Shown: positions 1,100 through 24,816 of the stretch, in pieces
Position numbering within the stretch: the first letter of the stretch is position 1
Layout of the letters: the number at the start of each line of letters is the position of its first letter
NCBI GenBank assembly: GCA_964454395.1
Contig: CAYVTN010000001.1
Coordinates: forward strand, 1-25,178
Direction: 5' to 3'
Origin: an uncultured bacterium
GTDB taxonomy: Bacteria; Oederibacteriota; JAAXVQ01; JAUVAV01
DNA length: 25,178 nucleotides
Made by a program: the position numbers and the translations under genes
The notes under the pieces: model-generated
What the model saw: only the letters and a program-made list of their open reading frames with translations
Told to the model about the DNA's origin: nothing
Databases searched by the model: none

Positions 1100-1834
1100 C
1101 TATTTATCCCACAGTGTAAGCCCTCGCGCCAGGGTAACAGCGAAAACCTGTTCAGCCCCGGCTTTTTTCAAGGCCCGGCTGCATTCATTAAGCGTGGCTC
1201 CGGTGGTAAGCACATCATCCAGTAAAATAACATTGCGATGCTTGACAGCACTATTGGCTTCCATGCTATGGCGCATATTTTTCAACCTATGTTTCCGTGT
1301 CAGGTGATGCTGCTGCTGTGTGGGGCGGACATATTTCAGGGCATTTTTAAAGTAGTCCAGCTGAGATTGCCGAGCGGTTTTCCCCGCTATTGTGGCCAAG
1401 GCATGCGGCTCATGACCAGACCGGGCCGGCACATTGATCATCATTGACTCCGGCAAAGGCTTGATTTGTTTTCTGATTATTTTACCAAGCCTGTGGGCCA
1501 ACTGAGTCATCACATAAATATCAGGTTGTTGTTTTAGCACAAGGACAAGTTCTTTCCAAGCGCCTGTATATGGCCCCAGGCAAAAGACTTTATCAAAATG
1601 GAAGTTCAATTTTTGACAGTAGCGGCAGCCGTCTATTGAATATGGAACGGTCATCGGCAGCAGCCGCCCGCATTTAAGACAACGGGGGCGTTTATTTAAC
1701 GAGGGAAAACAGCGGGAACAAATCAGAGGCAATGCACTCCGGTTGGCCGGACGGTGACAAGCAGGGCAATCGGGCGGGCTTAGGAGAGATTTAAAATGGG
1801 CCAGCCATTGCAGCGGTTGGGGTAATGGTTTCAT
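1100..1834 (-). CDS. comF: ComF-family protein (double zinc ribbon + phosphoribosyltransferase-like domain)
   Basis: Four CxxC motifs (CPAC, CSRC, CLKC, CRYC) and the C-terminal PRT motif VILLDDVLTTGATLNECSRALKKAGAEQV. RBS AAGGAG lies upstream of the ATG. Confidence 0.85.
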   Translation of the reverse strand: MKPLPQPLQWLAHFKSLLSPPDCPACHRPANRSALPLICSRCFPSLNKRPRCLKCGRLLPMTVPYSIDGCRYCQKLNFHFDKVFCLGPYTGAWKELVLVLKQQPDIYVMTQLAHRLGKIIRKQIKPLPESMMINVPARSGHEPHALATIAGKTARQSQLDYFKNALKYVRPTQQQHHLTRKHRLKNMRHSMEANSAVKHRNVILLDDVLTTGATLNECSRALKKAGAEQVFAVTLARGLTLWDK

Positions 1835-4175: not shown

Positions 4176-6401
4176 TTAAAATTTCCATGTATATCCCAAA
4201 TTCACCCGGTAAAGGGTCTGGCCCTTCAGGTAATCATCTATGGCGCCGTTATAGGCTATCGGATTTTCAAAAACATTATACGCCGCGGCCACAAAGCTAA
4301 ATTGATCAATATTAAAGCCCAGGCTGACGTCGTATTGCGGCAACCATTTGGAAGCCCTGTAAACTTCGCTAACTATATTACCATCCTTATTGATCTTTGT
4401 CGGGCTGGCGGCCACGTGGGCATAGAAATTAAGAAAAACCATATCTCTATAATGCAATTCCAGCACCGCGTTGGCAATGTTGGCCACGCCTTGATCCCAG
4501 GAAGGATGAACCGGTTCCTTCCGGGCATAGAGGTTGATGCGGCTGTAATTCAGCTTGACCCGGGTATAATCGGTGGGCGCAATGTTGGTTTCCAATTCAA
4601 ATCCGTGGCCAATGCGGCTGTTGGAATTGTCCCAGCTTACAAAGGCAGGCGCCACATTCAACGCTTGCAGATAGAGAAATCCGGGCGTGGACGGCTGCAT
4701 GGGATCAAGTAAGCTGAAGTCAGGCACATAGGCATAAAGGTTTCCAAAGGTATAGGCGAATTGGATTTCATTCTGGGTTTCCCAGTAAAAATAATCGGCC
4801 TTGGCCTGAAACCATTTGCCGATTTCATATTCCACGCTGGCCTCGCTCTGCTGGATGCTTTCCGGCTTAAGGTCCATATTGCCTTGGACCTCATAAAAGC
4901 CGTAATCCATCAAGGCATAGCGTTCAAAAATAACCGGCGAACGGAAGGCGCTGCCGTAAAGGGCTTTGAAACGCAATCCTTTAAGGGGTTCATAGATCAA
5001 ACTTTCCCTGGGACTGAGGTTGCTGCCGTAATCGAGATTGTAGTCGTAGCGCAGGCCGCTCAAGAGGATCAGTTGATCCCCCAAGTGATATTCGTCCTGC
5101 AAAAAAACGGCATAGTTGTTGTCCGTCACCTGGGCCTGATTATAATAATCAATGTTGGACCATCCCAAGTCCACATTCACGCCGGCCAGGAGGTAGTTGT
5201 TTTGCGGCCACGACAGGTCGTATTGCGCCTCGGCGATTAAATCATTCGTCTGACCCCGGCCCAAATCCACCACATCCAGGGCGCCACCGGTAGCGATTTT
5301 AAGAAAATCATTAAAGTCTATGTAATATTCACCCACGGTATTGTTAATGTCGAAGTCCATATTGCCCTGCTCATCTACAATAACCCACGGCGTCGGTGTG
5401 GGCAGGTCGCTCGAGCTGTTGATCTTTCTTCGGGTGATATCCCAATATTCACTGCGCAGGGTCCTGGTCAGGTTATAATTGTCGGTAAGATGGAATTTAA
5501 GATTGGACAGCTCGTTGAGGGTCAGCTTGTACGTGCTGTCCAGGTAGATGGACTCCAATTCTTCCGTATTTCTCGGGGTCGGCGTCCATTCCGAACCGCT
5601 CCAGGGATTGCTGTTTTTTTGATAGCCGCCCTTCAAGGTCCATTGGTCTTTCCATTTCAGGCTGAAGTCCGCCGAATCCCCGGTATACAGGCTGTTGGGA
5701 TCAGTGCCGTTGTAAGGATCAATGCCCAATTCCCTCCAGTAGCCGGCCGAGACTTTATAATCCCAGTCTCCGGTTTTATGGCCGTAAGTCATGGTATATT
5801 TCTGCGAAACTTCAAAGTCACCGGCTTTGTTGCCCACGCTGACTTCGGTGGCCAGCCCGCCAATCTCCGCACCGTCCTTGGTCACGATATTGATCACCCC
5901 GGCATAGGCATTGGCGCCATAAAGCGATGAGCCAGGACCTTTAATGACTTCGATTTGTTTGACATCGGTCAGGTTAGTGCCGAATTGGCCGTCATAATTG
6001 CCCCAATCCATGTTATTCACTTTACGGCCATCCACCAGGACCAGGATTTTATTGTTGTAGGAAGCCTGCATGTCGCGGAAGCGCATGGTATTGAACAGGC
6101 CTTCATTGTTAAAACAAACACCGGTAATATTGATCAGGGCATCATAAATGGTGAGCGCTCCGTATTCCTTGATTTCCTTTTCCGTAACAATGGTCACCGA
6201 CCCGGGCACTTCCGAAAGCTTTTGCAGGCGTTTGGTGGCGGACATGACCAAGATGTCGTCACTGAACAGCATGAGTTCCGTCACCTGGCCAAGGTTGTCT
6301 CCTGCTTTGGCCAAGCCGATCAGACTGTTTGACAAAATCACCATCATGGTAAAACAGAGAATAAGTTTTGCTGGAGTTCGCACGGCCAACCTCCCTCTCA
6401 T
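4176..6401 (-). CDS. TonB-dependent receptor, paralog 2 (alternative start GTG at 6383)
   Basis: Same plug and barrel motifs as paralog 1 and a C-terminal Phe. GGGAGG lies 6 nt before the in-frame GTG at 6383, which may be the true start. The gap to paralog 1 is 27 nt. Confidence 0.92.
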   Translation of the reverse strand: MRGRLAVRTPAKLILCFTMMVILSNSLIGLAKAGDNLGQVTELMLFSDDILVMSATKRLQKLSEVPGSVTIVTEKEIKEYGALTIYDALINITGVCFNNEGLFNTMRFRDMQASYNNKILVLVDGRKVNNMDWGNYDGQFGTNLTDVKQIEVIKGPGSSLYGANAYAGVINIVTKDGAEIGGLATEVSVGNKAGDFEVSQKYTMTYGHKTGDWDYKVSAGYWRELGIDPYNGTDPNSLYTGDSADFSLKWKDQWTLKGGYQKNSNPWSGSEWTPTPRNTEELESIYLDSTYKLTLNELSNLKFHLTDNYNLTRTLRSEYWDITRRKINSSSDLPTPTPWVIVDEQGNMDFDINNTVGEYYIDFNDFLKIATGGALDVVDLGRGQTNDLIAEAQYDLSWPQNNYLLAGVNVDLGWSNIDYYNQAQVTDNNYAVFLQDEYHLGDQLILLSGLRYDYNLDYGSNLSPRESLIYEPLKGLRFKALYGSAFRSPVIFERYALMDYGFYEVQGNMDLKPESIQQSEASVEYEIGKWFQAKADYFYWETQNEIQFAYTFGNLYAYVPDFSLLDPMQPSTPGFLYLQALNVAPAFVSWDNSNSRIGHGFELETNIAPTDYTRVKLNYSRINLYARKEPVHPSWDQGVANIANAVLELHYRDMVFLNFYAHVAASPTKINKDGNIVSEVYRASKWLPQYDVSLGFNIDQFSFVAAAYNVFENPIAYNGAIDDYLKGQTLYRVNLGYTWKF

Positions 6402-6790: not shown

Positions 6791-8986
6791 TTAAAAACCC
6801 AACGTATAGGAAGCATTGATGCGGCAAAGCGGCTTACCCCGCAGGTAATCCCCATTTTTTTCATTGTAGTCCAAGGGGTTGTTAAAAATATCAAGCGCGG
6901 CCACCACCACGCTGAGTCCGCCGATTTTACATCCCAGGCTAACATCGTATTGCTGCGTCCATTTGGATTCAATCTTTTTGCCTTTTATGTCCAAAAAATC
7001 ATCGCCATAAGCCACAGGCACGCGGGCCGTATGGGCATAAAAATTGAGAAATAGCAGATCCTGATAGTGCAGTCCCAACACCGCATTGGCAATGTCACTT
7101 ACGCCTTCAGCCCATTCGGGTGCCACCGGTTTTTTACGGCCATACAGATTAACCCGGCTGTAATTTAATTGGATCCGGGTGAACTCCGTAGGCGCTATGG
7201 TTATTTCCAGTTCCAGGCCATGTCCAATACGGCTGTTGGAATTGTCCCAGCTCACAAAGGCAGGTGCGATATTCAATTGATCAGTATAAAACAATCCGGG
7301 AGCAGCGGGCATCAAGGGGCTGATCAGGCTCAAATCCGGCGAATAAACGTAAAGCGATCCCAGGGTATAGGCAAACTGAATTTCATTGGCTGTTTCCCAG
7401 TAAAAATAGGCGGCTTTGGCACGAAGCCATTTGCCTGACTCATATTCCACGCTGGCTTCGCTTTGCTGCACGCTTTCCGGCTTGAGGTCGGGATTGCCGT
7501 TGGCCTCATAAAAGCCGTAATTGGTCTTGGTGTAACGTTCCAGGAAAACCGGGGCTCTAAAGGCGCTGCCGTAAAGGGCTTTAAAGCGAAGTCCCTTGAA
7601 GGGTTCATAGATCAGGCTCTCCCTGGGACTGAGGTCGCTGCCGTAATCCTGGTTGTAGTCATAACGGAGGCCGCTGAGCATGATCAAGCGGTCCGCCAGA
7701 TGGTATTCATCCTGAAGGTACACGGCATAATTTTGATCGGTCACTTGACCGCCCAAAATATAATTTTGATCAACCCAGTTATAGTTGAAATTGATGCCTG
7801 CCAACAGATAATTGTTCTGAGGCCAAGCCAGGTCATACTGAAGCTCCAGCACGAGCTCGTTGAGACGCCCTTTGCCCAGATCGACTACTTCAAGCGCACT
7901 GCCGCTGGTAACACGCAATAAATCATCGACGCCGATATAGTATTGTCCCAGCGCGTTGTCCGGGAGTTCTATCTGCCCTTGGTCCGTGAAAATCATCGAT
8001 GGCGTCAGCGAGGGAAAATCGGCAATGCTGTTTATTTTTTTTCGATGCAGATCCCAAGTTTCGGTTTCCACCATCCGATCGGCGTAATAATTGTCGGTCA
8101 AATGCACCTTAAGACTGGAGAGATCATTAAGTTCCAGTTTGTAGGTGCCGTCCAAATAGAGCATGTCCTGCTTTTCATGGTTGCGTGGTGTAGGCGTGAA
8201 GGTCGAGCCATCCCAGGGGGTGGTGGAGTCAAGATAGCCGCCCTGTACCATCCAATCGTCCTTGAACTTGAGCTTAAAATTGGCGTCCGCCCCGGTATAC
8301 AGATCATTGGGATGGTCCACATTGACCGGATCAACGCCCAGGGCGCGCCAATAACCGGCGGTCACCTTGTAATCAAGAGTGCCTTTTTTACCGCCATAGG
8401 CAAGATTGTATTTTTGGGAAATTTCAAAATCGCCCGGTTTATTGGCGAGGCTGATGTCGGTTTTTACCCCTCCAATATCAGCACCATCCTTGGTGACAAT
8501 ATTGATGACACCGGCGTAGGCATTGGCCCCATACAAGGAAGACCCCGGGCCTTTAATGACTTCGATCTGTTTAACGTTGCTTAAATCCGTCCCGTATTTC
8601 CCATCATAATTGCCAATGTCCATGGTGTTGATCTTCCGGCCGTCCACCAAAACCAGGATTTTGTTATTATAAGCTGATTGCATTCCCCGGAAGCGGAGCG
8701 AATCGAACAAGCCCTCATTGATAATGACCACATCGGTCATATTGCGCAGGGCTTCATAGATCGTCAAAGCCCCGCTCTCCTTGATCTCTTTTCCCGTGAT
8801 AATGGTCACGGACCCCGGCACTTCCGAGAGCTTTTGCAGGCGCTTGGTGGCGGACATGACCATGACCTCGTCGCTGAAGAGCATCAGTTCCGTGACAGGA
8901 CTTAAATTATCCATCGCCATAAGGATGGGACTGCACCAAGCGGTCATCACCATAGCCATCAGACCCATGGTAAGATATTTTTTCAT
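6791..8986 (-). CDS. TonB-dependent receptor, paralog 3 (start revised from 9037 to 8986)
   Basis: Strong RBS AAGGAGGGGG before ATG 8986 (MKKYLTMGLMAMVMTAWCSPILMA signal peptide). Same plug and barrel motifs, C-terminal Phe. Confidence 0.92.
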   Translation of the reverse strand: MKKYLTMGLMAMVMTAWCSPILMAMDNLSPVTELMLFSDEVMVMSATKRLQKLSEVPGSVTIITGKEIKESGALTIYEALRNMTDVVIINEGLFDSLRFRGMQSAYNNKILVLVDGRKINTMDIGNYDGKYGTDLSNVKQIEVIKGPGSSLYGANAYAGVINIVTKDGADIGGVKTDISLANKPGDFEISQKYNLAYGGKKGTLDYKVTAGYWRALGVDPVNVDHPNDLYTGADANFKLKFKDDWMVQGGYLDSTTPWDGSTFTPTPRNHEKQDMLYLDGTYKLELNDLSSLKVHLTDNYYADRMVETETWDLHRKKINSIADFPSLTPSMIFTDQGQIELPDNALGQYYIGVDDLLRVTSGSALEVVDLGKGRLNELVLELQYDLAWPQNNYLLAGINFNYNWVDQNYILGGQVTDQNYAVYLQDEYHLADRLIMLSGLRYDYNQDYGSDLSPRESLIYEPFKGLRFKALYGSAFRAPVFLERYTKTNYGFYEANGNPDLKPESVQQSEASVEYESGKWLRAKAAYFYWETANEIQFAYTLGSLYVYSPDLSLISPLMPAAPGLFYTDQLNIAPAFVSWDNSNSRIGHGLELEITIAPTEFTRIQLNYSRVNLYGRKKPVAPEWAEGVSDIANAVLGLHYQDLLFLNFYAHTARVPVAYGDDFLDIKGKKIESKWTQQYDVSLGCKIGGLSVVVAALDIFNNPLDYNEKNGDYLRGKPLCRINASYTLGF

Positions 8987-9046
8987 TTCCCCCTCCTTAG
9001 TATCGTCGCCCCCCTGAGAAACGCTAATAATCCTCACGCTAATAGT

Positions 9047-9250
9047 TCAGGGTATAATGGCGACCGATCTGGGCACTTCCGAAAGCTTCTGCAACCGTTT
9101 GGTGGCGGACATGACCATGATTTCGTCGCTGAACAACATGAGCTCCGTCACCTGCCCAAAACTGTCCAGAGCCTGAACCCCTTAAAATGAACTCAGAAGC
9201 GCTGAAGCAAATACCAGCATGGTTATAATTATTCTCATGAGAGCACGCAT
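9047..9250 (-). pseudogene. Truncated 5' remnant of a fourth TBDR paralog
   Basis: Hand translation: MRALMRIIITMLVFASALLSSF*GVQALDSFGQVTELMLFSDEIMVMSATKRLQKLSEVPRSVAIIP*. There is an in-frame TAA at codon 23, and homology to the paralogs stops at the start of the plug domain. Confidence 0.9.
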
Positions 9251-9564: not shown

Positions 9565-12500
9565 TTAAAATACGGCCGTAATACCCGCTTTGACACTGAT
9601 GGCCCAATAATCGTGATCAACTTCAATGTGGTCAAAGTACCATTGATTGGTCACTTTGATATCGCCTTCCACATTGCGCCAGAGGGAGTAGTTGATGGTC
9701 GTATCATTGGTGTATTCGTTGACATTTTTATTGTAGAGGGACGTTTTGATGGGTTCGTTATGGTAATATTCTTTATTGTCGGTAAACTTGATATTAAAAT
9801 AATTGGTTAGCCTTAACGTTTGCTCAAGTTTAATCAAGGCGCCGTTAAAAGGCCAAAAATTGGGCAGCCGGATGGGATCTACCATGTTCAAATTATAGTT
9901 AAAAGAAATACCGGCATCGTATTCATTTTGCACCAGTTCCTTGCTCAAATCATCCCCCGAGGCCTGGTGCTGCGTCATCAATTTCCCGGTCAAGGTGCCA
10001 CTTAAATCCGCGGTAAGACGGAACGGAACGGTAAGCGAAGTGGTGTGGGTGGTATTAAGCGTGGAGACGACATTTTTGGCATTAAGCTGCTTGTTCAAAT
10101 CGTAACGGTAATCCAAATTGAGGGTTTGAAAAGCCAGCCAATCAAAAGACGGCACTTTGGACCAATTAAAAGTTCCGCCCAGGGACTCGGTCTCGGTCGT
10201 GATATAATTGTCCCGGGTATTCATGTTTTTGGTCCAGGTGGTGGAGTATTGCGGGGCCAGGGTGACATTGGGAATGAAATTGACACTGGTCGTAAGGCTG
10301 TCCGTCTTCTTTCTGGAGTTAATATACGCGTTGTTTAATTTTTCATCGTCATCCTGAAAGGTCTTGGGATCAATAAGCCATTGATCCTGAAAATCGAGTT
10401 GATCAATGGTTTGGTTGTCCTGTTCATATTTATAAGTCGCCGAACGGGTGTATGTTTCATTGAAACTGAATTGCGGGAAGGCATTCCATCCCAGGATATC
10501 CCCCAGATTAATGCCTGATTGGATGCTCAGGGTGCCCGGCGTGGAAAGTGAATCCTGAATATAATCGCGGTTATTGGTCATGGTATAACTCAGCGACGGT
10601 GAAAGCACGGGAATGCTGCTGATATTAACATTTAGTTTGGCAATCTTGTCCAATTGGGCATTGCGTAACTCATCGGATTTGTAACGATCCGCGGGATTGA
10701 GTTCATAATTGTCACGGTAATAATAACGATAGAGAGACAGAAAACCTCGGTTGCGGGTGCGTGAATAGGTAAATTGGGGGGTGAGGCGCAAAAACCGAAC
10801 GGGCGAATAGTTGCCGGAATAGGTGTAACTTTCCTCCCAACTGTGCTCCCACCGCGAATAATAGGCATCCCGGGCTGAAATGCTGTTGCTCAGGCTGTCG
10901 ATGTCTTCTTGATTATACATGGTATGGGTGTCGGTGTAAGTCAGTTTGCCGCTCACGGTGGTGGTGCCAATGGGAAAATTAAAGATCCTGTCCGGCAAGG
11001 AATAAGAAACCTGCGGATTGACCGACGAAGTTTCCTCGATACTGTTGGGCTGGGTGCGCTGTACAATATACTCACGCACGCTGCGGCTCCGGTTGGTGTG
11101 CACTGAAATATCAAGCCCGGGAATTTGGCTATATCCGATGCTGCCGGATAAGGTTTCAGTGGTCAAATCAGGGTTGGTAAAATTGTTGGAATAAGAAAAA
11201 TCGTCACGGTTTTCCTGCTCGGTGTAGCTTTCATTTCTGGACCAGCTCATCTCGACCGGCATAAAACTGAATTTGGTGAGCGACCCGGACACCTGCTCGC
11301 TGACCTGGCGCTGCTTGCCCACCGGCGATTGATCAATGGTAAAGAAGTCGGAATCCACGTCACGGTGGTCGGTACGGATGGTGAACACGTCACCCCACTT
11401 GGTGGCCGTGCTGACGCGGTAAGCCATTCCCTGCTTGGAGCGGGCGCCGGTCACACGCAGGTTGTTGATCCAAATGGCCTCCACCCCGGATGTGGCGTTG
11501 GGATTATAAACCCCGATGGAGATGGTTTTAATGTTATTGAGGCCGGGCAGGATATTTTCCCCGAACACTTCCTTCCTTTTCCCGTCGCTGTCGTCCAACT
11601 CCAAAGTGACCGTATTCCAGGCGCTTATGGGCTGCAATTGATCCAGGGGCAGGCGGTATTCATAATAATTATTGTCGTCAATGCCCAGGCGTACAAAGAC
11701 ATATTCCCCGGCCGCGGTCTGGGTCTGTTTATAAATATCAAGCCGCAAATAGCGGTAACGCGAATAATCATAACCCTGGCTGGCCGTGGTGAGCGTCCGG
11801 GTAAAATAATAGGCCGGCGTATTGCACTGGCTGTCCGCCGGATCGGTCACATCCCGGTTGGTCAGGTTATACTCCAATTTGAGTGATTTCTCGTTGAGCA
11901 ATTGTTGCTGTTCATTTTGTGTCTCATCAATGATGTAAAAATAAGTGTTAGGCACATACTGACTGTCGGTTTCCAGGCTGATGGCCGTGGTGTTGATTTT
12001 GTCGGAAGGCACGGCGCTGATGGAATTGCCCAGGCTATCCACGGCGCCCGGGGCAACCACAGGCTGCCATTTATTGCCGGTCAGATTAATGGATTCGAAT
12101 TGAACGTACCCGCTCTGGTCCGCCGCGCTCTGCCCGGTCATCCACATGCGGACATGTTTGACAAAACTCATAAAGGCCTGGTCCTGCGGGTTGATATTGA
12201 CCGCGCCGCTGGTGGTGGTAAAGGCACTCAGGGGAATTTTATAGATATGCCAGCCCGGCTGCAGGTTAACACTGTATTCATAGTAGCTCTCCACCGTGTC
12301 CAACTGGTCGTTATTATCCATATCCTCGTTGTCTATCTGACTGTTGCCGTCTCCCCAGTAACCGGCGGGCGCACCCTGGGGAAAAATCCCTTCTCCGATG
12401 TTCCCGGCTGTCTGATCCCGGCCAATGACAGGCTGATTGGTGATGGGATCGTAGCCTACAATGGTATTAACCGGTCCCACGTCATAGCCCTCTATTTTTT

Positions 12501-15500
12501 TCTGACGGTCCCCTTCAAAATTGAGCTTCCCGTTGCCATTGCTGTCTTCGCTGACCAGCCCCAGATCCACATTAAGCTTAACGGCGGTGGATGACGGTGC
12601 GGAGGAATAGATAACCATTTCCAGGAACCGGTATTCATGCAGGTTGGACCCGGAACTGCTCAAAGGATAGACAAAGCCGTCCCAGCGGTTGCTGTTAAGG
12701 CCGTTGTATTCCCAGCGCAACTGGTGCTTTTTATCATTGCTGTCCACCGGCGTGCGCCCGTACTCATAGACCACGGACGGTTTGATGTACTTGCGCTGGT
12801 TCGGATCAGGAAAACTGCCGGTGGAAGGCCGGCTGGAGGGCGACCAGATATTGTTGGCATTGGCGCCGACAGGCAAAGAGAGCACATTGTCCGACCCGTC
12901 CATGTTGTCCACCATGGCCACGCCGTCTTCCCCGGCTTTGCGGTAAGTGTTCAATTCATAGTGGCTGTAGGCGCCCTCAGCCGACACATTAACCGAGAGC
13001 GGTATCTTGGCGTCTCCGAAAAGAGGATGCAACATGTCGGAAAAATCCTTGGGGTTGAGGTTGAGTTGCATATCGGCGTCGTAGATGGCAAGGGATGTGG
13101 GCGCTGAATTGACATCGGGAATATCCAGCGGCGTTTGGCTGGCATTGTATAAAAAAGTGGATCCTATGGTCAGCCGCTTGTCGATAACATCATATTCCGC
13201 CCGGGCGCCGAATAAATTGGTCTGATATTGCCCGCCAAAAGGCAGGTATTCGTAGGTAATGCTGATATCACTGCTGCTGGCAATACTGTCGGGGTTAAGA
13301 AAGGTGATGAAGCCCGTATCGTAATCGATGAAGTAATCCGTGTTGCGTTGCATTTTCAACCCGTCCTTGCGGATCACTTCCGAATCCTTGATGACATTCC
13401 AATGGGAAAGGTTGAAAGTGGAAATGGTGTTTTTAAATTCCACATGAATGGAGATGTTGTTGGCAATGCTGTTGTTGCTGCCGCCAAGGGTGGTGTTGTA
13501 AACCGAACTGTAGGCGTCTTTCAGGCTGTTGTTATAAGCATCCGATTTATAGCGCAGCGACGGATTCCCGAGGGTGTCGGCGGTAAAGGGATAATCATGC
13601 CTGAAGGTAATGGTGCCGAAGGTGGAATCAATCGTGTAAATCTTTTCGGCATTCAGGGTATCCGTGGGCAGGGGCAAGGAATACTCTTCGCCGTCACTTT
13701 TGGTTATTTTCATGACAAAATCACGGTCACTCTGGGGATCCACAATGTTCTGATAGCCCAGAGTATAGCGCTGCATGAGCATCATGATGTAATTATTGGA
13801 GAGGGCGGGATTGCTGGTATTGTAGTCCTGAATAAGGTGGGCGTTGTCATTGGTCTTGCCGTCAGTGGGAACATTGAGGGTGCTGTAATCCAGATTAATC
13901 TCCCCGTTGAGGTCATAACCCACGCTGTGTTCCGCGCCGGCGTTGTCCGTGTAGCGGTAGGCCACGGCCACAGACCAGGTCTGGGCAACCGGCTGGGTAA
14001 AGGTTACAATGCCCAACTGATAGTCCACCGTATAATCGATGCCCGGAGAAAGGCGGTTGTAAAAAATATTGTCGGTGGGCGCATTACTGGCCGGCCGGGA
14101 ATTGGTGTCATTCACGCCGTTGCGCACCCAAATCTCGACCGATTGGGGCACAATGCCGTGAATCGTCTGGTTAGGGTTGCTGCTGCTGTAAAAGTCCTGT
14201 TTGGAGTTATAAATAGGCAGGTTATAATTATTGACCTGAGCGGGCCAATCCTTGGTTAAATAATAATACCGGTAGGCCACAAAACTGGTGTCCGGAATGT
14301 CGATTTTTTTGGGGGACGTATTGCCTTTGAAACTCTCGGTGACCGTGATGCCCTTGGTTTGCGCGCCAATGGCGGTAAGGTTAAAGCCACCGTAGCCTAC
14401 CTTGACCTTGGCGCCAAAGAGATTTTTGTTGTACCCCGCAAATTCGGTCTTATCCAGATCCAGGTTAATGTCGCCAAAGGCTGCTTCCTGGACCACTTCA
14501 TCCGGATCCCCGGCGTACTTGATGGAAATTTTGCGCTGTTCCTCCTGGGTGTCGTCATAATCCACGTCCACCGTGATTTTTTTGCCCACTTTGCCTTCCA
14601 GGCGCACCTGTAGCTCCTGCTCCAGGTTAAACCCTTTTGTCAACCCTGAACCCAAAGCAGGTATGGGATTAGCGTCATCGGATTTGCTCAAACTGACGAT
14701 ATCAGTGTATCCAATATCAATTTTTTTCCGTCCTGATATCGTCAGGGATGAATTGGGTGGCAGCCCGGGAATGGCGGTGGAGAGAATCCCCTGTTTGGGA
14801 ATGGCGACGGGTTTGAGGGGTGAAGCCGTGACTTCCTCCGAAGGCGGGCTTTCATGATCCTGATTATCCACAGCCTTCACCAGGTAGGTATATTCCCTCC
14901 CCAGAATAGGTTTGGTGGTGCTGTTTTCCTCCGAGTCCACAAAGGTGGTTCCAGCCACCATTTTTTTGTTAATGGGCTCCCCGTAACCGGTCTCCTTGTC
15001 ACTTTTCCGGTAGATTTGATAGCCTTTCAGGCCATAACTGCCTGCGGTGGAAGGGGCCCAAGTCAAGCTGATCATGTCATCCGATTTCGGAGTGGCGTCG
15101 GGTTGCAGCGGCGAGGTGGGCGGAGCAAAAGGCGTGCTCTCCACCGCCACGGCCGGTTGGGAACGGTTGCCGGCATTGTCCTGGGCAAAGAAGGTGTAGT
15201 AATAGGTCCTGCCATTGACCAAGCCATGTTGGTTGTCGCCGCGATCGGTGTACGCCTCCGCTTTCAGGGGTTCGGTAAATAAAGGTTCTCCCAGTTGTCC
15301 TTTTTCAGTGGACCGGTAAATCATATAACCGCACAAGCCGAATTCCCCGCCTGAAAAAGAAGGCAACCATTTCAGATGCACTGATTGGTTGCCGGCCGTG
15401 GCTTCTACGGCCCCTGGTTGGCAAAGCATGGGAATATTCAGTACCTTAAGCGGTGTGGAGGAGGAGTTACCCCGGCCGTCGATGCTGATAACGCTGTAAT

Positions 15501-16008
15501 AGTAGGTCTTGCCATTTTCAGGCGGACTGGTGGAAAAGCCGGACACGTCCAGGAAATACTCATCCATCAGAGGGGAAGGATTGACCGGCGCCGGCCAGTC
15601 CGCAGCCCAGTAACCCGTAAGTGGAGATTCTGCGCGGAACAACTGGTATTTGGGTTTACTGCCGTTGATCAAGGGAGCCGGTTCCCAGGCAATTAACACG
15701 CGGTCGCCGCCGCTTCGGGCCTCCAGCCCGGTTGGCGGCATCAGAACACTATTGTTAACCGCCGTAGTGACCGTATTGCCCGTGCTGGAAGCTGTTGCCG
15801 GGGTGGATGGATTAAGGCTTCCGGACGTCGCGGCTGCAGTCGGTGTGGCCACGGCTGCGGTTGGAGCCGACACGGCTTCAGTTGGCTTTGCCACGGGCTC
15901 TGAGGCCGCCGGCTGGGCAGCCCAAAGAGCGGACCAACTTACTATGACAGCAAGGAATAACAAAGACGTTATTCCGGCACTAACCCTCAAGACGCGTTTC
16001 AAGAACAT
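9565..16008 (-). CDS. sprA: SprA/Sov-like large outer-membrane beta-barrel protein (T9SS translocon family) with an N-terminal linker and three FN3 domains
   Basis: Signal peptide, then motifs in the order I recall for SprA: LQVRLEGKVGKKITVDVDYD, ISIKYAGDPDEVVQEAAFGDI, GAKVKVGYG, GIDYTVDYQLGIVTF, NTDYFIDYDTGFITFLNP, GARAEY..IGSTFLY, VKHVRMW, NYYEYRLPL, WINNLRV. It ends in amphipathic strands and a terminal Phe (AGITAVF). TTG at 16002 is an alternative start, with GGAGG 6 nt upstream. Confidence 0.75.
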   Translation of the reverse strand: MFLKRVLRVSAGITSLLFLAVIVSWSALWAAQPAASEPVAKPTEAVSAPTAAVATPTAAATSGSLNPSTPATASSTGNTVTTAVNNSVLMPPTGLEARSGGDRVLIAWEPAPLINGSKPKYQLFRAESPLTGYWAADWPAPVNPSPLMDEYFLDVSGFSTSPPENGKTYYYSVISIDGRGNSSSTPLKVLNIPMLCQPGAVEATAGNQSVHLKWLPSFSGGEFGLCGYMIYRSTEKGQLGEPLFTEPLKAEAYTDRGDNQHGLVNGRTYYYTFFAQDNAGNRSQPAVAVESTPFAPPTSPLQPDATPKSDDMISLTWAPSTAGSYGLKGYQIYRKSDKETGYGEPINKKMVAGTTFVDSEENSTTKPILGREYTYLVKAVDNQDHESPPSEEVTASPLKPVAIPKQGILSTAIPGLPPNSSLTISGRKKIDIGYTDIVSLSKSDDANPIPALGSGLTKGFNLEQELQVRLEGKVGKKITVDVDYDDTQEEQRKISIKYAGDPDEVVQEAAFGDINLDLDKTEFAGYNKNLFGAKVKVGYGGFNLTAIGAQTKGITVTESFKGNTSPKKIDIPDTSFVAYRYYYLTKDWPAQVNNYNLPIYNSKQDFYSSSNPNQTIHGIVPQSVEIWVRNGVNDTNSRPASNAPTDNIFYNRLSPGIDYTVDYQLGIVTFTQPVAQTWSVAVAYRYTDNAGAEHSVGYDLNGEINLDYSTLNVPTDGKTNDNAHLIQDYNTSNPALSNNYIMMLMQRYTLGYQNIVDPQSDRDFVMKITKSDGEEYSLPLPTDTLNAEKIYTIDSTFGTITFRHDYPFTADTLGNPSLRYKSDAYNNSLKDAYSSVYNTTLGGSNNSIANNISIHVEFKNTISTFNLSHWNVIKDSEVIRKDGLKMQRNTDYFIDYDTGFITFLNPDSIASSSDISITYEYLPFGGQYQTNLFGARAEYDVIDKRLTIGSTFLYNASQTPLDIPDVNSAPTSLAIYDADMQLNLNPKDFSDMLHPLFGDAKIPLSVNVSAEGAYSHYELNTYRKAGEDGVAMVDNMDGSDNVLSLPVGANANNIWSPSSRPSTGSFPDPNQRKYIKPSVVYEYGRTPVDSNDKKHQLRWEYNGLNSNRWDGFVYPLSSSGSNLHEYRFLEMVIYSSAPSSTAVKLNVDLGLVSEDSNGNGKLNFEGDRQKKIEGYDVGPVNTIVGYDPITNQPVIGRDQTAGNIGEGIFPQGAPAGYWGDGNSQIDNEDMDNNDQLDTVESYYEYSVNLQPGWHIYKIPLSAFTTTSGAVNINPQDQAFMSFVKHVRMWMTGQSAADQSGYVQFESINLTGNKWQPVVAPGAVDSLGNSISAVPSDKINTTAISLETDSQYVPNTYFYIIDETQNEQQQLLNEKSLKLEYNLTNRDVTDPADSQCNTPAYYFTRTLTTASQGYDYSRYRYLRLDIYKQTQTAAGEYVFVRLGIDDNNYYEYRLPLDQLQPISAWNTVTLELDDSDGKRKEVFGENILPGLNNIKTISIGVYNPNATSGVEAIWINNLRVTGARSKQGMAYRVSTATKWGDVFTIRTDHRDVDSDFFTIDQSPVGKQRQVSEQVSGSLTKFSFMPVEMSWSRNESYTEQENRDDFSYSNNFTNPDLTTETLSGSIGYSQIPGLDISVHTNRSRSVREYIVQRTQPNSIEETSSVNPQVSYSLPDRIFNFPIGTTTVSGKLTYTDTHTMYNQEDIDSLSNSISARDAYYSRWEHSWEESYTYSGNYSPVRFLRLTPQFTYSRTRNRGFLSLYRYYYRDNYELNPADRYKSDELRNAQLDKIAKLNVNISSIPVLSPSLSYTMTNNRDYIQDSLSTPGTLSIQSGINLGDILGWNAFPQFSFNETYTRSATYKYEQDNQTIDQLDFQDQWLIDPKTFQDDDEKLNNAYINSRKKTDSLTTSVNFIPNVTLAPQYSTTWTKNMNTRDNYITTETESLGGTFNWSKVPSFDWLAFQTLNLDYRYDLNKQLNAKNVVSTLNTTHTTSLTVPFRLTADLSGTLTGKLMTQHQASGDDLSKELVQNEYDAGISFNYNLNMVDPIRLPNFWPFNGALIKLEQTLRLTNYFNIKFTDNKEYYHNEPIKTSLYNKNVNEYTNDTTINYSLWRNVEGDIKVTNQWYFDHIEVDHDYWAISVKAGITAVF

Positions 16009-16380
16009 CCTCCAATTGCACTACACCTTTGTAAAACAAGGTCACTGGTTGCGGAACCGGGTGGAAACCTATCTTTTTGGTGTACAGATCATTAATATTG
16101 ACAGTTTATCATTATCTTCTTACAAATAACCTTTCAAAATATCATTGATGAAATTTTCCCTAAAAATCTGGTTCCTTTATTATCCCCGACCTTTTGGGTA
16201 GTGGCAAGTTTATTCTCTATTAGCTTTAAAAATCAAAGCCATTATATTTGTCCATTGTATATTAACGGCGATTTTAGTAAAATTCCTAACATATATGATT
16301 TCCGGGGAAATGTATTTTCGTACCTGCCGGGATGGTCATTTTTGGTTCAATCCCCTACATGGGCCGGCAATGTCCGCACA

Positions 16381-16415
16381 AGGCAGGGGCTCAAGATGCT
16401 GCCGAGCCCCTGCTT
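16381..16415 (+). promoter_or_regulatory. GC-rich hairpin just upstream of the glycosyltransferase RBS
   Basis: GCAGGGGCTC (16383-16392) / GAGCCCCTGC (16404-16413) form a perfect 10-bp stem with an 11-nt loop. The GAGGAG RBS follows at 16423-16428. Confidence 0.4.
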
Positions 16416-16434
16416 CAATTCTGAGGAGTTTGTC

Positions 16435-17943
16435 TTGAAATTAACCTCTACCGCAAAATTTTATCTCACCCTGGCGCTCCTGACGGTTTTCAGGCTTTTG
16501 ATCATCGGCCATTTTGAATTGGCTCCTGACGAGGCCTATTACTGGACCTGGTCGCAGCATCTGGACTGGTCCTATTATGACCAGGGGCCCATGCTGGCGC
16601 TTGTTATCAAAGCCTTCACCTTGCTCTCCGGCCATGTCAGCGAATGGTCCGTGCGCCTCGGTTCGGTGCTCCTTTCCGTCATTAGTTCCATGTTGATTTT
16701 CTATACCACCAAAAGGCTTTTCCGGAGCGAGCGTGCCGCTTGGCTGGCTTTTTTAGGGCTTAACATCACTTTGCTTTTTTCAGCCGGCGCCCTTTTAATG
16801 ATGCATGACAGCATCATGGTCATGTTTTGGATGGCAGCCCTTTATTTCTTTTACCGGGCCGTGGTGGAAAACCGGCACTGGGCTTGGGGGTTGGGCGCCT
16901 TGATGTTGGGCCTGGGCGGGCTTTCCAAATATACCATGGCTTTGTTCGTTCCCGGTCTGTTGTTGTTTCTGCTGCTTTCTCCCCAAGGCCGGGCTTTTTG
17001 GAAAAAACCTTACCTGTACCTGGCCGGAGCACTGACCATAATTCTGGTCTCGCCCATTGTTTTCTGGAACATTGCCCACCATTGGGCATCCTTTAACCAT
17101 ATCGGGGATCTGGGCGGCGTGCATCAACGCCACTGGTTGCATATTAAATCCGTGGGCGATTTTTTGGGCGGCCAACTGGGCGTATTGTCGCCGTTGATGG
17201 GCCTGTTTTGCCTGGCCGCACCCTGGATCGGATGGCAAGAATGGCGGAAAAAGGGGGATTATGCCCAAGCCTATCTTTGGCTGTTTTCCTTTTCCGCACC
17301 AACCCTGCTGTTCTTTTTCCTGTTGTCCTTTAAAACCGAGGTTTACGCCAACTGGCCCGCCCCGGCTTATCCGGCGGCCTTGATGCTGCTGGCCGGCTGG
17401 ACGGACAGGTTGTTGCAGGGTCCGATGGGCCGGCGTACCAAAACATGGCTGGCCGCGACGCTGATCGTTTCCTTTATTTTTACCGGTGTGGCCCATCTGC
17501 AAGTGCTCCATCCCTTCCTGCCCCTTACCGGCAGGGCGGCTGATTCCGTCAATCGTATCCGCGGTTGGCGCGAAGTGGGCACCCAGGCCGGCATCTGCCT
17601 GCGGCAATTGCAAAAGCAAAGCCAAGCGCCCGTTTTTTTGGCTGCCCGGCGTTATCAAATCGCGGGGATTCTTTGGTTTTACACCCCCGGCCATCCTGAA
17701 GTTCAGTTGCTGGCGCGGTATGATCCTGCCAAAAGCCAGTTTCAAATTTGGGACCGCAGGGATCAACTGGCAGGTCATAATGCGGTCTACGTTTGTCAGG
17801 ATCAGTGGGAAGTGGATCATGTACGCCGTTTTTTTGAAAAAGTGGTGGCGTTGCCCGACTTTGAGGTCATCCGTGGCCGTGACCACATCAGAACCATCAA
17901 ATATGTTTTCTGCTATCATTTCAAAGCCGGGAAGCAGCAGTGA
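16435..17943 (+). CDS. Membrane glycosyltransferase, GT-C fold (ArnT/PMT_2, GT39/GT83-like); start revised from 16201 to TTG 16435
   Basis: APDEAYYWTWSQHLDWSYYDQGP motif after the first TM, SVRLGSV, LGLGGLSKYT and many TM helices. RBS GAGGAG lies 6 nt before the in-frame TTG. The upstream ORF extension has no family features. Confidence 0.85.
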   Translation: MKLTSTAKFYLTLALLTVFRLLIIGHFELAPDEAYYWTWSQHLDWSYYDQGPMLALVIKAFTLLSGHVSEWSVRLGSVLLSVISSMLIFYTTKRLFRSERAAWLAFLGLNITLLFSAGALLMMHDSIMVMFWMAALYFFYRAVVENRHWAWGLGALMLGLGGLSKYTMALFVPGLLLFLLLSPQGRAFWKKPYLYLAGALTIILVSPIVFWNIAHHWASFNHIGDLGGVHQRHWLHIKSVGDFLGGQLGVLSPLMGLFCLAAPWIGWQEWRKKGDYAQAYLWLFSFSAPTLLFFFLLSFKTEVYANWPAPAYPAALMLLAGWTDRLLQGPMGRRTKTWLAATLIVSFIFTGVAHLQVLHPFLPLTGRAADSVNRIRGWREVGTQAGICLRQLQKQSQAPVFLAARRYQIAGILWFYTPGHPEVQLLARYDPAKSQFQIWDRRDQLAGHNAVYVCQDQWEVDHVRRFFEKVVALPDFEVIRGRDHIRTIKYVFCYHFKAGKQQ

Positions 17944-19139
17944 TGAAAACCCTGCGCGCTTATGTCCTGAAGGAGTTAATCTTTCCCTTTTTAATGGGGC
18001 TGACCGTGTTTACCTTCATCCTGGTGATGGACCGTATTTTCACGCTCACCGACCTTATCGTGAAGTACGGCGTATCGGTATTCACCGTACTTAAATTGCT
18101 GTTTTTCATCCTGCCGTCCACCTTCGCCATCACCATTCCCATGGCTTGCCTGGTGGCGGTCATGGTGGCTTTTTCCCGCCTCAAAAGCGACAATGAACTG
18201 ACGGCCATGAAAGCTTCGGGCATCTCTTTGCTCCCCCTGGTGGGCACCACCCTGGGATTGGGAGCGGTTTTAACCGCGGCCATGATCATCTTCAACAACA
18301 CCGCCCTGCCCTATGCCAATTACGCCTACCGTGATCTGTATTTCAAGATCGTCAGCCAGCGCGCGGCCATTGTCATCGAAGACCATGTTTTCGTCGAGGA
18401 TTTTGACGGTTACGTTTTTCGCGTGGGACAGAAAAATCCCATTACGGGTCAGTTAGAAGACGTGGTGGTCTTTGTGCGTGACAAAAAAAAAGACAAGGAT
18501 TTCAGAACCATCGTGGCTAAACGGGGACAACTCATCAGCGACCAGGAGAATCACCGGGTTATGCTTAAACTGGAAGACGGGTACATGCAGATGGTGCAGC
18601 GCAACGACCTGAAGACTTTTTCCCAAATTTACTTCCGCACCAATTTCCTTGATCTGGATATCAACCGCGAGCTGGCCAATTCCGACCGCCAAGCTTCACG
18701 CAGCGCCCGGGAAATGACCATGGGTCAGATCAAAAAGGAGATTGCCAAACGGCGCCAAAATGGCGGCGATATCCGGCTGCTGTGGGTGGAGTATTTCAAG
18801 AAAACATCCATTCCTTTTGCATGTTTCGCTTTCTTTTTGATCGGTGCGCCGCTGGGCATTCTGGCGCCGCGTTCGGGCAAATATTTTTCTTATTTCATCG
18901 GGGTTCTTTTGATTTTTGTTTATTATATTTTCATTTCCCTGGGGGAAACCTTCGGGGCTGACGGCAAAATGTCTCCCTTTTTGTCCATGTGGCTGCCCAA
19001 TTTAATTCTGGTGGGCGCCGGCGCCTACTGCCTGGCCTGGGTAATCATGGAAAAAGCGCCCTTTTTGGCCGGTTTGCAGCAGCGCTGGTCGCAACAGACC
19101 ACCGGGCGTTCCGCTCCCCGGCAGGAGTCAAGACGATGA
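17943..19139 (+). CDS. lptF: LPS export ABC transporter permease LptF (YjgP/YjgQ family)
   Basis: YVLKEL..PF N-terminus, SRLKSDNELTAMKASGISL, a periplasmic beta-jellyroll region, and C-terminal KKTSIPFACFAFFLIGAPLG and WLPNLI. The ATG overlaps the upstream TGA. Confidence 0.9.
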   Translation: MKTLRAYVLKELIFPFLMGLTVFTFILVMDRIFTLTDLIVKYGVSVFTVLKLLFFILPSTFAITIPMACLVAVMVAFSRLKSDNELTAMKASGISLLPLVGTTLGLGAVLTAAMIIFNNTALPYANYAYRDLYFKIVSQRAAIVIEDHVFVEDFDGYVFRVGQKNPITGQLEDVVVFVRDKKKDKDFRTIVAKRGQLISDQENHRVMLKLEDGYMQMVQRNDLKTFSQIYFRTNFLDLDINRELANSDRQASRSAREMTMGQIKKEIAKRRQNGGDIRLLWVEYFKKTSIPFACFAFFLIGAPLGILAPRSGKYFSYFIGVLLIFVYYIFISLGETFGADGKMSPFLSMWLPNLILVGAGAYCLAWVIMEKAPFLAGLQQRWSQQTTGRSAPRQESRR

Positions 19140-20245
19140 GTACCTTGTCCAAATATATTTTGAAGGAATTCCTCAAACCGCTCTTTTTCACCATTCTTGT
19201 GTTTGTCGGCCTGTATATCATTTCCCAGATGGTGGATGAGATGCGCTCTTTCGTCAACAACAAACCCGACCTCATTTTGATCGTGCTCTATTACCTTTAC
19301 CGCGTGCCCTATTTTTTCGTGCAAATCCTGCCCATGTCCGTTCTGCTGGCGTCCTTGTTTTCCCTGGGCCAGTTGGCCCGACAAAATGAACTGATCGCCA
19401 TACGCAGCTGCGGCATAGGCTTTTTTAAAGCAGTCTCCCCCATTTTGGCGGTTTCATTGGTTTTGGTCGTCATGGTGCTGGCGTTCAATGAACTGGTGAT
19501 CCCCTACACCAATCCGCGCGCCAGCCGCATCAAACGGGTCTCCATCGAACACAAAGACGATGAGTCCCTGCATTTGCAGCGCGATTGGATAACCCGCAGC
19601 GTTTCGGGCAACAGAATCCTGCACGCCCACCATTTGGATGCCCGGTCCGGGACCATGCAGGATGTAACGCTCTTAAAATTCCGTGACCAGCTGCACATGG
19701 AGAGCAGAATTGATGCACCGACCGCGCATTGGATAAAAGGCCATTGGATCTTCATGCGGGGCGTCCTGCGCCGCTTTGATGAGAAAGGACGCATGACCGC
19801 TTACGAACGGTTTTCCAAGCTGGCCTTGCCTTTCCGGGAGCTGCCCCGGGAGTTTATCCGCCAGGAAAAAAAGGACGACCAGCTGCTTTCCACGCCTTTG
19901 CGGGAACTGAGCTACCAGATAAAGCTTTTAAAAGAGATCGGCATTGACCCGAAAAAAGAAGAAGTCTATTTTCATTTAAAAATTGCCTTTCCTTTTGCCA
20001 ACTTCATTCTGGCCTTGCTGGGCGTGTCCCTGCCTTTTGTTTTCCCCACCGGCAGGCGCAGCATTGTCTGGACAGCCATCGGTTTTGTGATCACCATCAT
20101 CACCGCCTTTTTTTATATCGGCTTTATTGCCGTGGGATCGTCCTTTGGAAAAAACGGCATGTTGTCACCCATGCTGTCGGTTTGGATAGCCAATATGGTG
20201 TTCGCGGTGATCGGCATCTGGCTGATGACCAAAGCCCGCAGTTAA
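19136..20245 (+). CDS. lptG: LPS export ABC transporter permease LptG (start revised from 18989 to 19136)
   Basis: LSKYILKEF N-terminus, LARQNELIAIRSCG, KIAFPFANFILALLG and WIANMVF. ATGA overlap with the lptF stop, RBS AGGAG. Confidence 0.9.
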   Translation: MSTLSKYILKEFLKPLFFTILVFVGLYIISQMVDEMRSFVNNKPDLILIVLYYLYRVPYFFVQILPMSVLLASLFSLGQLARQNELIAIRSCGIGFFKAVSPILAVSLVLVVMVLAFNELVIPYTNPRASRIKRVSIEHKDDESLHLQRDWITRSVSGNRILHAHHLDARSGTMQDVTLLKFRDQLHMESRIDAPTAHWIKGHWIFMRGVLRRFDEKGRMTAYERFSKLALPFRELPREFIRQEKKDDQLLSTPLRELSYQIKLLKEIGIDPKKEEVYFHLKIAFPFANFILALLGVSLPFVFPTGRRSIVWTAIGFVITIITAFFYIGFIAVGSSFGKNGMLSPMLSVWIANMVFAVIGIWLMTKARS

Positions 20246-23640: not shown

Positions 23641-24816
23641 TCAGGCCGGAACATTAAACATCCTTTTAATGCCACGCAGCGCTTGCTTGGTGCGCTCCTC
23701 ATTTTCGATCAAGGCAAAGCGCACATAACCCTCCCCGCCTTCACCAAAGCCCGCGCCCGGGGACACGGCCACCTTGGCTTCGCTCAGAAGTTTCATGGAA
23801 AATTCCACCGAAGAAAGATCCCGGAACGGCTCCGGAATCTTTGCCCACAGGAACATGGTCGCTCTCGGTTTAGGCACTTGCCAGCCCAGTTTGTTCAAAC
23901 CATCCACCAGTACGTCGCGGCGGCACCGGTAGGTCTCCACAATCTGCCGGACACAATCCTGGGGCCCGTTGAGGGCGGAGATGGCGGCAATTTGGATGGG
24001 CGTGAACATGCCGTAGTCCAGATAACTTTTTATCCTGGTCAACATGGCCACGGCCTCTTTGTTGCCCACCATGAATCCCACCCGCCAACCGGGCATATTG
24101 TATGTTTTGGAAAGCGAATAGAATTCCACCCCCAGCTCTTTGGCCCCGGGCACTTGCAGCAGACTGGGCGACTTGTAACCATCAAAACAAAGCTCCGCGT
24201 AGGCATGATCATGAATGATCAATAGATTTTCAGATTGCGCCAGGGCCACTACTTGTTCAAAGAACCCGTAATCCACGGTGGTCCCGGTGGGATTTTGGGG
24301 AAAGGACAGCAATAATGCTTTGGGTTTGGGCCAGGAGTTTTTACAGACATTGATAATCTTGGTCAAAATATTTTCATCCGGCTCAAAGGGAATGCTGATC
24401 ACATTGCCTTCCGCCAAAATGGTGGAGTACGCATGAATGGGGTAACAAGGCGATGGCACGATCACCGTATCTCCCGGATTGAGCATGGCCAGCATAAAAT
24501 GGGAGATGCCTTCCTTCGCGCCGATCGTGGCAATGGCCTCCGTATCCGGATCAAGGTCCACGTCAAAACGGCGTTTATACCAACGACAAATGGCTTCCCT
24601 TAATTTATAGACGCCTTTGGACACGCTGTAACGATGATTTTGCGCTTTGGCCGCAGCTTCCACCAGTTTATCCACGATATGCCGCGGCGTGGCCATGTCA
24701 GGATTGCCCATGCCAAAGTCAATGATATCTTCTCCCCGGCTTCTGGCTTTTTTGGTCTCCGCCGTGACTTTGGCCAGGACATAGGGAGGAATGCGTTCTA
24801 ACTTATTGGAAATCAT
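23641..24816 (-). CDS. alaC: PLP-dependent class I/II aminotransferase, AlaC (YfdZ)-like; start revised from 24924 to 24816
   Basis: LERIPPYV, RGEDIIDFGMGNPD, YPIH, HDHAYAEL, PLP lysine in EFYSLSKTYNMPGWRVGF, and KSYLDYGMFTPIQ and VRFALIENEER, which I recognise from AlaC. A DapL-like function is not excluded. Confidence 0.8.
   Translation of the reverse strand: MISNKLERIPPYVLAKVTAETKKARSRGEDIIDFGMGNPDMATPRHIVDKLVEAAAKAQNHRYSVSKGVYKLREAICRWYKRRFDVDLDPDTEAIATIGAKEGISHFMLAMLNPGDTVIVPSPCYPIHAYSTILAEGNVISIPFEPDENILTKIINVCKNSWPKPKALLLSFPQNPTGTTVDYGFFEQVVALAQSENLLIIHDHAYAELCFDGYKSPSLLQVPGAKELGVEFYSLSKTYNMPGWRVGFMVGNKEAVAMLTRIKSYLDYGMFTPIQIAAISALNGPQDCVRQIVETYRCRRDVLVDGLNKLGWQVPKPRATMFLWAKIPEPFRDLSSVEFSMKLLSEAKVAVSPGAGFGEGGEGYVRFALIENEERTKQALRGIKRMFNVPA

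Follow-up and report, generated by a model that had tools for sequence, protein, structure and literature searches.

A SprA-family translocon gene

The contig CAYVTN010000001.1 (assembly GCA_964454395.1), of which the 25,178 nucleotides from position 1 were analysed (henceforth the window), carries a single intact open reading frame (ORF) at 9565..16008 on the minus strand, with 2147 amino acids (aa) counted from the ATG at 16008 and a C-terminus reading ...GITAVF*. Its product is a homologue of SprA (Sov), the T9SS (type IX secretion system) outer-membrane translocon, by curated hidden Markov models (HMMs), profile comparison and predicted fold. The gene probably supplies the outer-membrane translocon for T9SS-like export in the FCPU426/Goldbacteria, to which we assign the host. 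The SprA family is known but the lineage is new and beyond the published range of the T9SS, and the distinctive features of the locus are an N-terminal arm of FN3 domains and a pairing with lptF and lptG. The gene and the regions of its product are as follows.

9565..16008, minus strand: SprA-family outer-membrane translocon gene (ORF; TIGR04189; SprA_N; profile match to 6h3i_A; hhalign)
15919..16008, minus strand: putative signal peptide, residues 1 to ~30 (...SALWA/AQ), read by eye from the translation
14815..15747, minus strand: three tandem FN3 domains, ~residues 88–398, N-terminal of the SprA body (profile matches, Pfam fn3, alignment offsets)
11230..14811, minus strand: SprA core, ~residues 400–1593, against canonical SprA ~97–1535 (hmmsearch, 6h3i_A; hhalign)
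9568..11229, minus strand: predicted C-terminal barrel region, ~residues 1594–2147, with the terminal Phe (AlphaFold2 model; Foldseek)

The equivalog model TIGR04189 ('T9SS outer membrane translocon Sov/SprA') matches the protein with 273.8 bits in five stretches (curated cutoff 200), and Pfam SprA_N (PF14349) does so with 38.2 bits (cutoff 27). An earlier reading of the DNA made without database searches (the sequence-only reading) had described a 2147-aa SprA-type protein with a terminal Phe and had pointed to these two models; the scores confirm it on both. When used as a single query in phmmer against the PDB sequences, the protein retrieved FN3 proteins only and no SprA match; with a profile built from 23 members of the SprA-like family, four colinear stretches of the Flavobacterium johnsoniae SprA (6h3i_A) were matched at E 9.6e-42. 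Comparison by hhalign with four canonical SprA_N proteins gave a probability of 100% and E 1.5e-70 over 1160 aligned columns at 22% identity, residues ~365–1593 running colinear with canonical positions 97–1535. Canonical SprA proteins are weak matches in direct comparison (~22–25% identity, E 1e-15 or worse). The SprA name is to be expected from databases for this protein, and JGI already labels one relative so.

An AlphaFold2 model of residues 948–2147 (predicted local distance difference test, pLDDT, 67) contains ~25 long strands within the last 640 residues, a count that belongs to a partial model and not to the whole barrel, the known SprA barrel having 36 strands. The four best matches of this model in a Foldseek search of the PDB were all SprA (8gl8_A, 8gl6_A, 6h3j_A and 6h3i_A; E 3e-31 to 4e-26, TMq 0.48–0.51), followed by MtrB at E 1.7e-6. 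The large barrel foreseen in the sequence-only reading is thereby supported, for the modelled part, by matches to SprA structures and by the ~25 strands counted there.

By eye, the N-terminus (MFLKRVLRVSAGITSLLFLAVIVSWSALWA) and the C-terminal aromatic residue (...GITAVF) match the expectation for an outer-membrane protein. An Ala/Pro/Thr-rich linker follows the signal peptide and reaches ~residue 87. In the FN3 arm behind it, titin/fibronectin FN3 matches cover positions 77–385 of the family profile and Pfam fn3 scores 35 bits over residues 300–393. This triple arm, which is probably periplasmic, is absent from the homologues of Elusimicrobiota and Firestonebacteria (alignment offsets; proteins of ~1700 aa), and the SprA-family body of ~1750 aa lies C-terminal of it. 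The true start is probably TTG 16002 rather than ATG 16008, because the GGAGG at 16009–16013 stands 6 nt from the former and 0 nt from the latter, and because the database copy of the protein (P0001) has 2145 aa, the length obtained from the TTG.

Host placement and inheritance

The closest relative of the protein, at 83% identity, comes from a metagenome-assembled genome (MAG), and some of ~20 further relatives at 46–62% identity are labelled candidate division FCPU426. A scan of species-representative genomes yielded 35 loci with SprA-like genes, belonging to FCPU426, Candidatus Goldiibacteriota, Firestonebacteria, Elusimicrobiota, Coatesbacteria, Fermentibacteria and one Spirochaetia MAG. 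The gene order of the window (aminotransferase, GAF/HAMP histidine kinase, GreA, LptG, LptF, PMT_2, SprA-like gene, with ComF further on) is common to FCPU426 and Goldiibacteriota MAGs. The housekeeping proteins GreA (64–68% identity), LptG (56–65%) and the aminotransferase (77–79%) find their best matches in these loci, and the SprA-like protein is comparable (50–53%). Doud et al. equated the FCPU426 16S cluster with the Goldbacteria, and their marker-gene tree puts the group beside Firestonebacteria and Elusimicrobia (PMC7031533), outside the Fibrobacteres-Chlorobi-Bacteroidetes (FCB) group. Judged by these relatives, the host is a FCPU426/Goldbacteria bacterium outside the Bacteroidota, in line with the non-Bacteroidota host proposed in the sequence-only reading. 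Reviews restrict the T9SS to Bacteroidota or to the FCB group; the host falls outside this range, which is a statement on taxonomic range and carries no mechanistic requirement.

The shared gene order, the identities of housekeeping genes, the Shine-Dalgarno sites and the lack of a GC island (GC content 0.43–0.57 along the whole window) also argue that the SprA-like gene is no recent import, and it was apparently inherited vertically along with its housekeeping neighbours. A recent transfer from Bacteroidota, or a mis-binned Bacteroidota fragment, is highly improbable. Nothing specific speaks for it apart from the classical description of the T9SS just mentioned; against it, canonical SprA is only ~22–25% identical, every flanking housekeeping gene has its best match in FCPU426 loci, where the order is kept as well, Shine-Dalgarno sites are in use, the composition shows no island and the tree of the clade tracks host phyla. 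Horizontal transfer from Bacteroidota was rejected on synteny, identity and composition.

That tree, a rough neighbour-joining one of the conserved core only, groups the window protein with FCPU426/Goldiibacteriota. A divergent FCPU426-labelled group, Coatesbacteria-like proteins, Firestonebacteria, Elusimicrobiota and the Spirochaetia MAG form sister groups, and Fermentibacteria and three further MAGs join the canonical SprA_N proteins instead. The branching follows the phyla, and the SprA-like clade branches deep, apart from canonical SprA. In the divergent FCPU426-labelled group (L013, L015, L017, L019, L021) the proteins are 28–33% identical to that of the window, and the SprA-like gene comes after rpsM-rpsK-rpsD-rpoA-rplQ and is followed by a gene for a 2000–2500-aa FN3 protein and by secD-secF. 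The small upstream genes of this subgroup had a size that suited ExbB/ExbD, but this candidate identity is rejected: they are rpsM, rpsK, rpsD, rpoA and rplQ.

Shuttle-type barrels and cargo in related loci

Relatives of the SprA-like gene carry genes for PorV/PorQ-family barrels and for proteins with a T9SS C-terminal domain (CTD), often adjoining the SprA-like gene itself. The idea of a lone, motor-independent pore, which goes back to the sequence-only reading, is therefore not supported in that form, and the gene is better seen as part of a T9SS-like outer-membrane module. In the Coatesbacteria-like loci (L004) the SprA-like gene is followed by an FN3 protein and then by a PorV/PorQ-family barrel (106 bits, cutoff 90). 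In a Firestonebacteria locus (L023) LptG/LptF and the SprA-like gene have as direct neighbours a PorV-like barrel and a CTD protein (TIGR04183, 23.4 bits against a cutoff of 23), and in two Elusimicrobiota loci (L024, L029) a TPR lipoprotein and a PorV-like barrel stand beside LptGF and the SprA-like gene. A Goldiibacteriota locus (L040) has the order GT2, PorV/Q (118.9 bits), FG-GAP protein with a type A CTD (31.8 bits), PorV/Q (93.8 bits), GT9, and in a FCPU426 MAG (L001) a CTD protein (TIGR04183, 26.1 bits) is encoded 4 kb from the SprA-like gene. Finally, in an Elusimicrobia locus (L047, MAG GCA_028718185.1, 5147–17825) a gene for a giant surface protein and then one for a PorV/PorP_SprF-like barrel form pairs that repeat. 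Its giant proteins (~1550–1600 aa) combine Laminin_G_3 with FN3 domains, the barrels carry a TPR part and one of them an OmpA domain too, and a third giant protein begins at the end of the locus. Pairing of cargo genes with shuttle barrel genes is also described for Bacteroidota (PMC12618676).

Ten loci encode, directly downstream of their SprA-like gene, a large FN3 protein (473–2512 aa) that the window lacks; the C-terminus of such proteins (e.g. L003:16449–19085 and L004:15870–17987) weakly resembles T9SS CTD and FlgD-Ig folds.

Since the SprA-like genes of relatives cluster with PorV/PorQ-type barrels and CTD proteins, the window protein most likely works as a T9SS-type translocon. The Sec system would take CTD-bearing cargo to the periplasm, from which it would cross the outer membrane via the very large SprA-like barrel and be handed over sideways to PorV/PorQ/PorP-like shuttle barrels, as in F. 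johnsoniae. Among such cargo in Goldbacteria there may be FG-GAP, FN3 and carbohydrate-active surface proteins.

The lptF-lptG pairing and the gene neighbourhood

The SprA-like gene is divergently arranged with an operon that contains lptF and lptG. Besides these, the window holds a partial NtrC-type regulator, ComF, three TonB-dependent receptors, a PMT_2 glycosyltransferase, GreA, a histidine kinase and an aminotransferase. The features closest to the argument are these.

1100..1834, minus strand: ComF-family gene, separated from the SprA-like gene by the TonB-dependent receptor array
16009..16200, no strand: divergent intergenic region, with the SprA-like gene on one side and the PMT_2-lptF-lptG operon on the other (GGAGG at 16009–16013; promoter-like site)
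16201..17943, plus strand: PMT_2 / ArnT-like membrane glycosyltransferase, which opens the divergent operon (PF13231, 127 bits)
17940–19139, plus strand: lptF (PF03739; 297 and 269 bits for the LptF/LptG pair)
18989–20245, plus strand: lptG, as the ORF (PF03739); its true start is probably later

On the TIGR models for LptF and LptG, TIGR04407 gives 220.6 bits, just under its cutoff of 230, and TIGR04408 gives 241.2 bits (cutoff 240). A head-to-head pairing of LptG/LptF and the SprA-like gene recurs at 25 loci, which belong to FCPU426, Goldiibacteriota, Firestonebacteria, Elusimicrobiota, Fermentibacteria and further MAGs; the named phyla concerned, candidate or formal, number five or more. 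The pairing is also found beside a more canonical SprA_N protein (L046) and is absent at another canonical locus (L045). The ArnT-like PMT_2 gene between lptF and the SprA-like gene is found only in FCPU426/Goldbacteria (12 loci). On the other side, ComF directly follows the SprA-like gene in 16 related loci; downstream genes of DNA uptake and type IV pili recur more generally, with a ComEA-like HHH protein and MshE/PilB at L046 and PilB in the Fermentibacteria loci. The gene found upstream in Coatesbacteria-like loci is pepA, and in Elusimicrobiota lysS, lolC/E, lolD, ilvE, mcsA, mcsB and clpB lie downstream. A bamA-skp-lpxD supercluster of outer-membrane biogenesis genes had been suspected in Elusimicrobiota, but the genes turned out otherwise and only lolCD fits.

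The SprA-like gene is thus located in core, envelope-related neighbourhoods. Joint regulation of the translocon and of lipopolysaccharide (LPS) export within outer-membrane biogenesis is suggested by the conserved head-to-head pairing with lptF-lptG, which could also be an inherited gene order without functional meaning.

Motor and function

Several observations weigh against a T9SS-type translocon. At the sequence level the last ~550 aa of the protein find no alignment with canonical SprA (hhalign), their likeness to SprA being one of predicted fold only, and a model of residues 400–1599 reached a pLDDT of 50 and was discarded. As the sequence-only reading had stated in finding no other T9SS gene in the 25 kb, the window shows no PorV-like gene, CTD cargo or motor gene at the sensitivity used (HMMs for PorV-like proteins, PorL and PorM). 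The PorV/PorQ family is very widespread (Margulisbacteria, Saganbacteria, Spirochaetia), including phyla without a known T9SS, and membership alone is therefore no proof of a T9SS; the evidence is the clustering and not the family name. Several PorV-like and CTD scores are under or right at the curated cutoffs, and no FCPU426-labelled protein is among the best 120 PorV-like matches. GldK/L/M/N, PorU, PorZ and SprE were not found in the flanks of the SprA-like loci, a search of flanks and not of whole genomes. The PorV-like profile searches gave matches in Goldiibacteriota, Firestonebacteria and Elusimicrobia; for the FCPU426/Goldbacteria clade the PorV evidence comes from Goldiibacteriota MAGs, and no PorV/PorQ-family relative scores as an equivalog of PorV proper. 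NCBIfam scans of ~60 neighbouring proteins matched PorU/PorZ at the CTD level only. HMMs of PorL and PorM, built from published sequences (PMC7323717 supplement), had no match in ~843 kb of flanks from 45 loci, which allows no inference on whole genomes.

A GldLM/PorLM-type motor has a roughly even chance of being encoded elsewhere in the host genome. The SprA-like gene would then belong to an ordinary, complete T9SS, with a GldK/L/M/N-type motor and ring, PorU/PorZ-type attachment and SprE at other places in the genome, a special case of the T9SS-type translocon that we regard as quite conceivable, if somewhat short of even. The score above the cutoff of an equivalog model and the PorV/Q-family barrels and type A CTD cargo of related genomes agree with it, as does the sprA gene lacking a link to lptFG at the one canonical locus examined. 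In Bacteroidota, too, sprA is not known to be linked to gldKLMN, which counts in favour of a complete system and against one lacking a motor. Neither a motor, ring or sortase homologue nor SprE appeared in the ~843 kb of flanks, however, and the literature searched held no paper linking T9SS genes to FCPU426, Goldbacteria, Firestonebacteria or Elusimicrobia. A T9SS-like module restricted to the outer membrane, without GldLM/PorKN or otherwise energised, and an older and simpler form of the system, was the proposal of the sequence-only reading as regards the motor and is rather unlikely. It would suit the deep branching of the clade apart from canonical SprA, the housekeeping settings of the genes (lptFG, the end of the rpoA-rplQ operon, secDF, lolCD), the lack of a motor gene in every flank examined and the FN3 arm as a lineage-specific N-terminal addition; but absence from flanks is not absence from genomes, and there is no positive sign of another energy source, the candidate ExbBD-like genes being those of ribosomal proteins. 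In such a motor-less module the fused periplasmic FN3 arm of FCPU426 might serve as a coupling element. The fullest form of this proposal, an ancient, vertically inherited and lptFG-coupled export module of SprA-type pore, PorV/PorP-like shuttles and CTD cargo, working without GldLM/PorKN or otherwise energised across Elusimicrobiota, Firestonebacteria, Goldbacteria/FCPU426 and Coatesbacteria-like bacteria, we hold to be unlikely.

The neighbourhood could also be read as that of an outer-membrane biogenesis factor for LPS export, or for the surface attachment of LPS-linked molecules, which would not mainly be a secretion pore. This we find improbable, even with the head-to-head LptG/LptF arrangement in 25 loci and L046, the ArnT-like glycosyltransferase beside lptF-lptG, the Goldbacteria PorV/Q genes amid LPS-core glycosyltransferases (GT2, GT9) and LolC/LolD downstream in Elusimicrobiota on its side. 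Both homology and fold single out SprA, a protein translocon, CTD proteins and shuttle-type barrels are co-located with the SprA-like genes, and the gene order is possibly inherited without function, other subgroups having pepA (Coatesbacteria-like) or a ribosomal operon upstream. Moreover, the cargo of the Bacteroidota T9SS is itself anchored to LPS (PMC8545088), and a link to LPS is therefore compatible with secretion.

Other features of the window

In the divergent intergenic region a promoter-like TTGCCA-17-GATAAT lies at 16207–16179 on the minus strand and a TTGACA at ~16098–16103 on the plus strand. GGAGG or AGGAG is found 9–13 nt upstream of ComF, of the first receptor gene, of the SprA-like gene (from its TTG start) and of GreA, and over the window as a whole GGAGG is not enriched (39 found, 47.8 expected). 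Of the expression signals named in the sequence-only reading, strong GGAGG sites and a TTGACA/TAAAAT promoter, the sites stand at these four genes and the exact promoter pair was not found.

The receptor array consists of three tandem TonB-dependent receptor paralogues on the minus strand (1971–4148, 4176–6401 and 6791–9037). The first and third are 65% identical in amino acids, and the plug-proximal segment is near-identical among the three. A fourth receptor survives as a truncated N-terminal remnant (~9054–9172) in the gap after the SprA-like gene. The position of the array is occupied by five copies in the 83% relative and by the FN3 protein and ComF in other FCPU426 loci. The 528-bp gap downstream of the SprA-like gene gave no Rfam match and no tRNA, and the idea of a riboswitch or other RNA there was rejected on these scans.

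At the left end of the contig an NtrC-type response regulator (2–589, minus strand) runs off the contig, leaving its N-terminal part with the receiver and sigma-54 interaction domains; its presence implies sigma-54-dependent regulation in the host organism. Read from the start of the longest ORF, lptG, PMT_2 and the aminotransferase (23641–24924) gain N-terminal extensions without a ribosome-binding site, and relatives are shorter (369–395 aa for LptF/LptG, ~505–523 aa for PMT_2); the true starts of the three genes are for these reasons probably internal.

Significance and comparison with known systems

The supplements of the Goldbacteria paper (PMC7031533) contain no Gld or SprA terms. With the loci described here, a translocon, shuttle-type barrels and sorting-domain cargo are also found in a deep clade of FCPU426/Goldbacteria, Firestonebacteria, Elusimicrobiota and Coatesbacteria-like bacteria, which moves the origin of the outer-membrane part of the T9SS earlier in time. 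The clade is a ready-made setting in which to learn how far a SprA pore depends on the motor, ring and sortase of the Bacteroidota machinery, and the absence of a motor, if true, would raise the importance of the locus. Goldbacteria have been described as cellulose degraders with many enzymes bearing carbohydrate-binding modules (PMC7031533), for which the SprA-like translocon suggests a possible route to the surface. The lptF-lptG pairing, head to head with the translocon gene, gives a new tie, open to test, between protein export and LPS export.

Compared with SprA (Sov) of F. johnsoniae and Porphyromonas gingivalis (6H3I, 6H3J, 8GL6, 8GL8), the window protein is likewise more than 2000 aa long, with a putative signal peptide and a terminal aromatic residue. 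It shares with them a colinear conserved core and, by prediction, a large beta-barrel fold extending into the C-terminal third, and its relatives keep company with PorV/PorQ-type barrels and CTD-tagged proteins. It differs in its low core identity (~22%) and a last ~550 aa that cannot be aligned by sequence, in the added N-terminal Ala/Pro-rich linker and three FN3 domains, and in a FCPU426/Goldbacteria host outside the FCB group, where lptF-lptG are the head-to-head neighbours of the gene. The flanks yielded no motor, ring, sortase, plug, peptidyl-prolyl isomerase (PPI) or SprE partner for it.

As for the Bacteroidota T9SS shuttles PorV, PorQ and PorP (SprF), the Goldiibacteriota locus L040 and the Elusimicrobia locus L047 show the same alternation of cargo and barrel, but no such genes lie in the window and many of the barrels are fused to TPR or OmpA. 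The SprA-like proteins of Elusimicrobiota, Firestonebacteria and Coatesbacteria-like MAGs are unpublished database entries, mostly annotated 'hypothetical protein'. Compared with the window protein they are shorter (~1700–1950 aa), lack some or all of the N-terminal FN3 domains, have core identities of 26–38% and are adjoined by PorV-like barrels, of which the window has none. They nevertheless belong to the same deep clade, the Coatesbacteria-like protein of L004 also scores above the TIGR04189 cutoff (263.5 bits), and the Elusimicrobiota and Firestonebacteria loci share both the LptG/LptF pairing and the downstream ComF.

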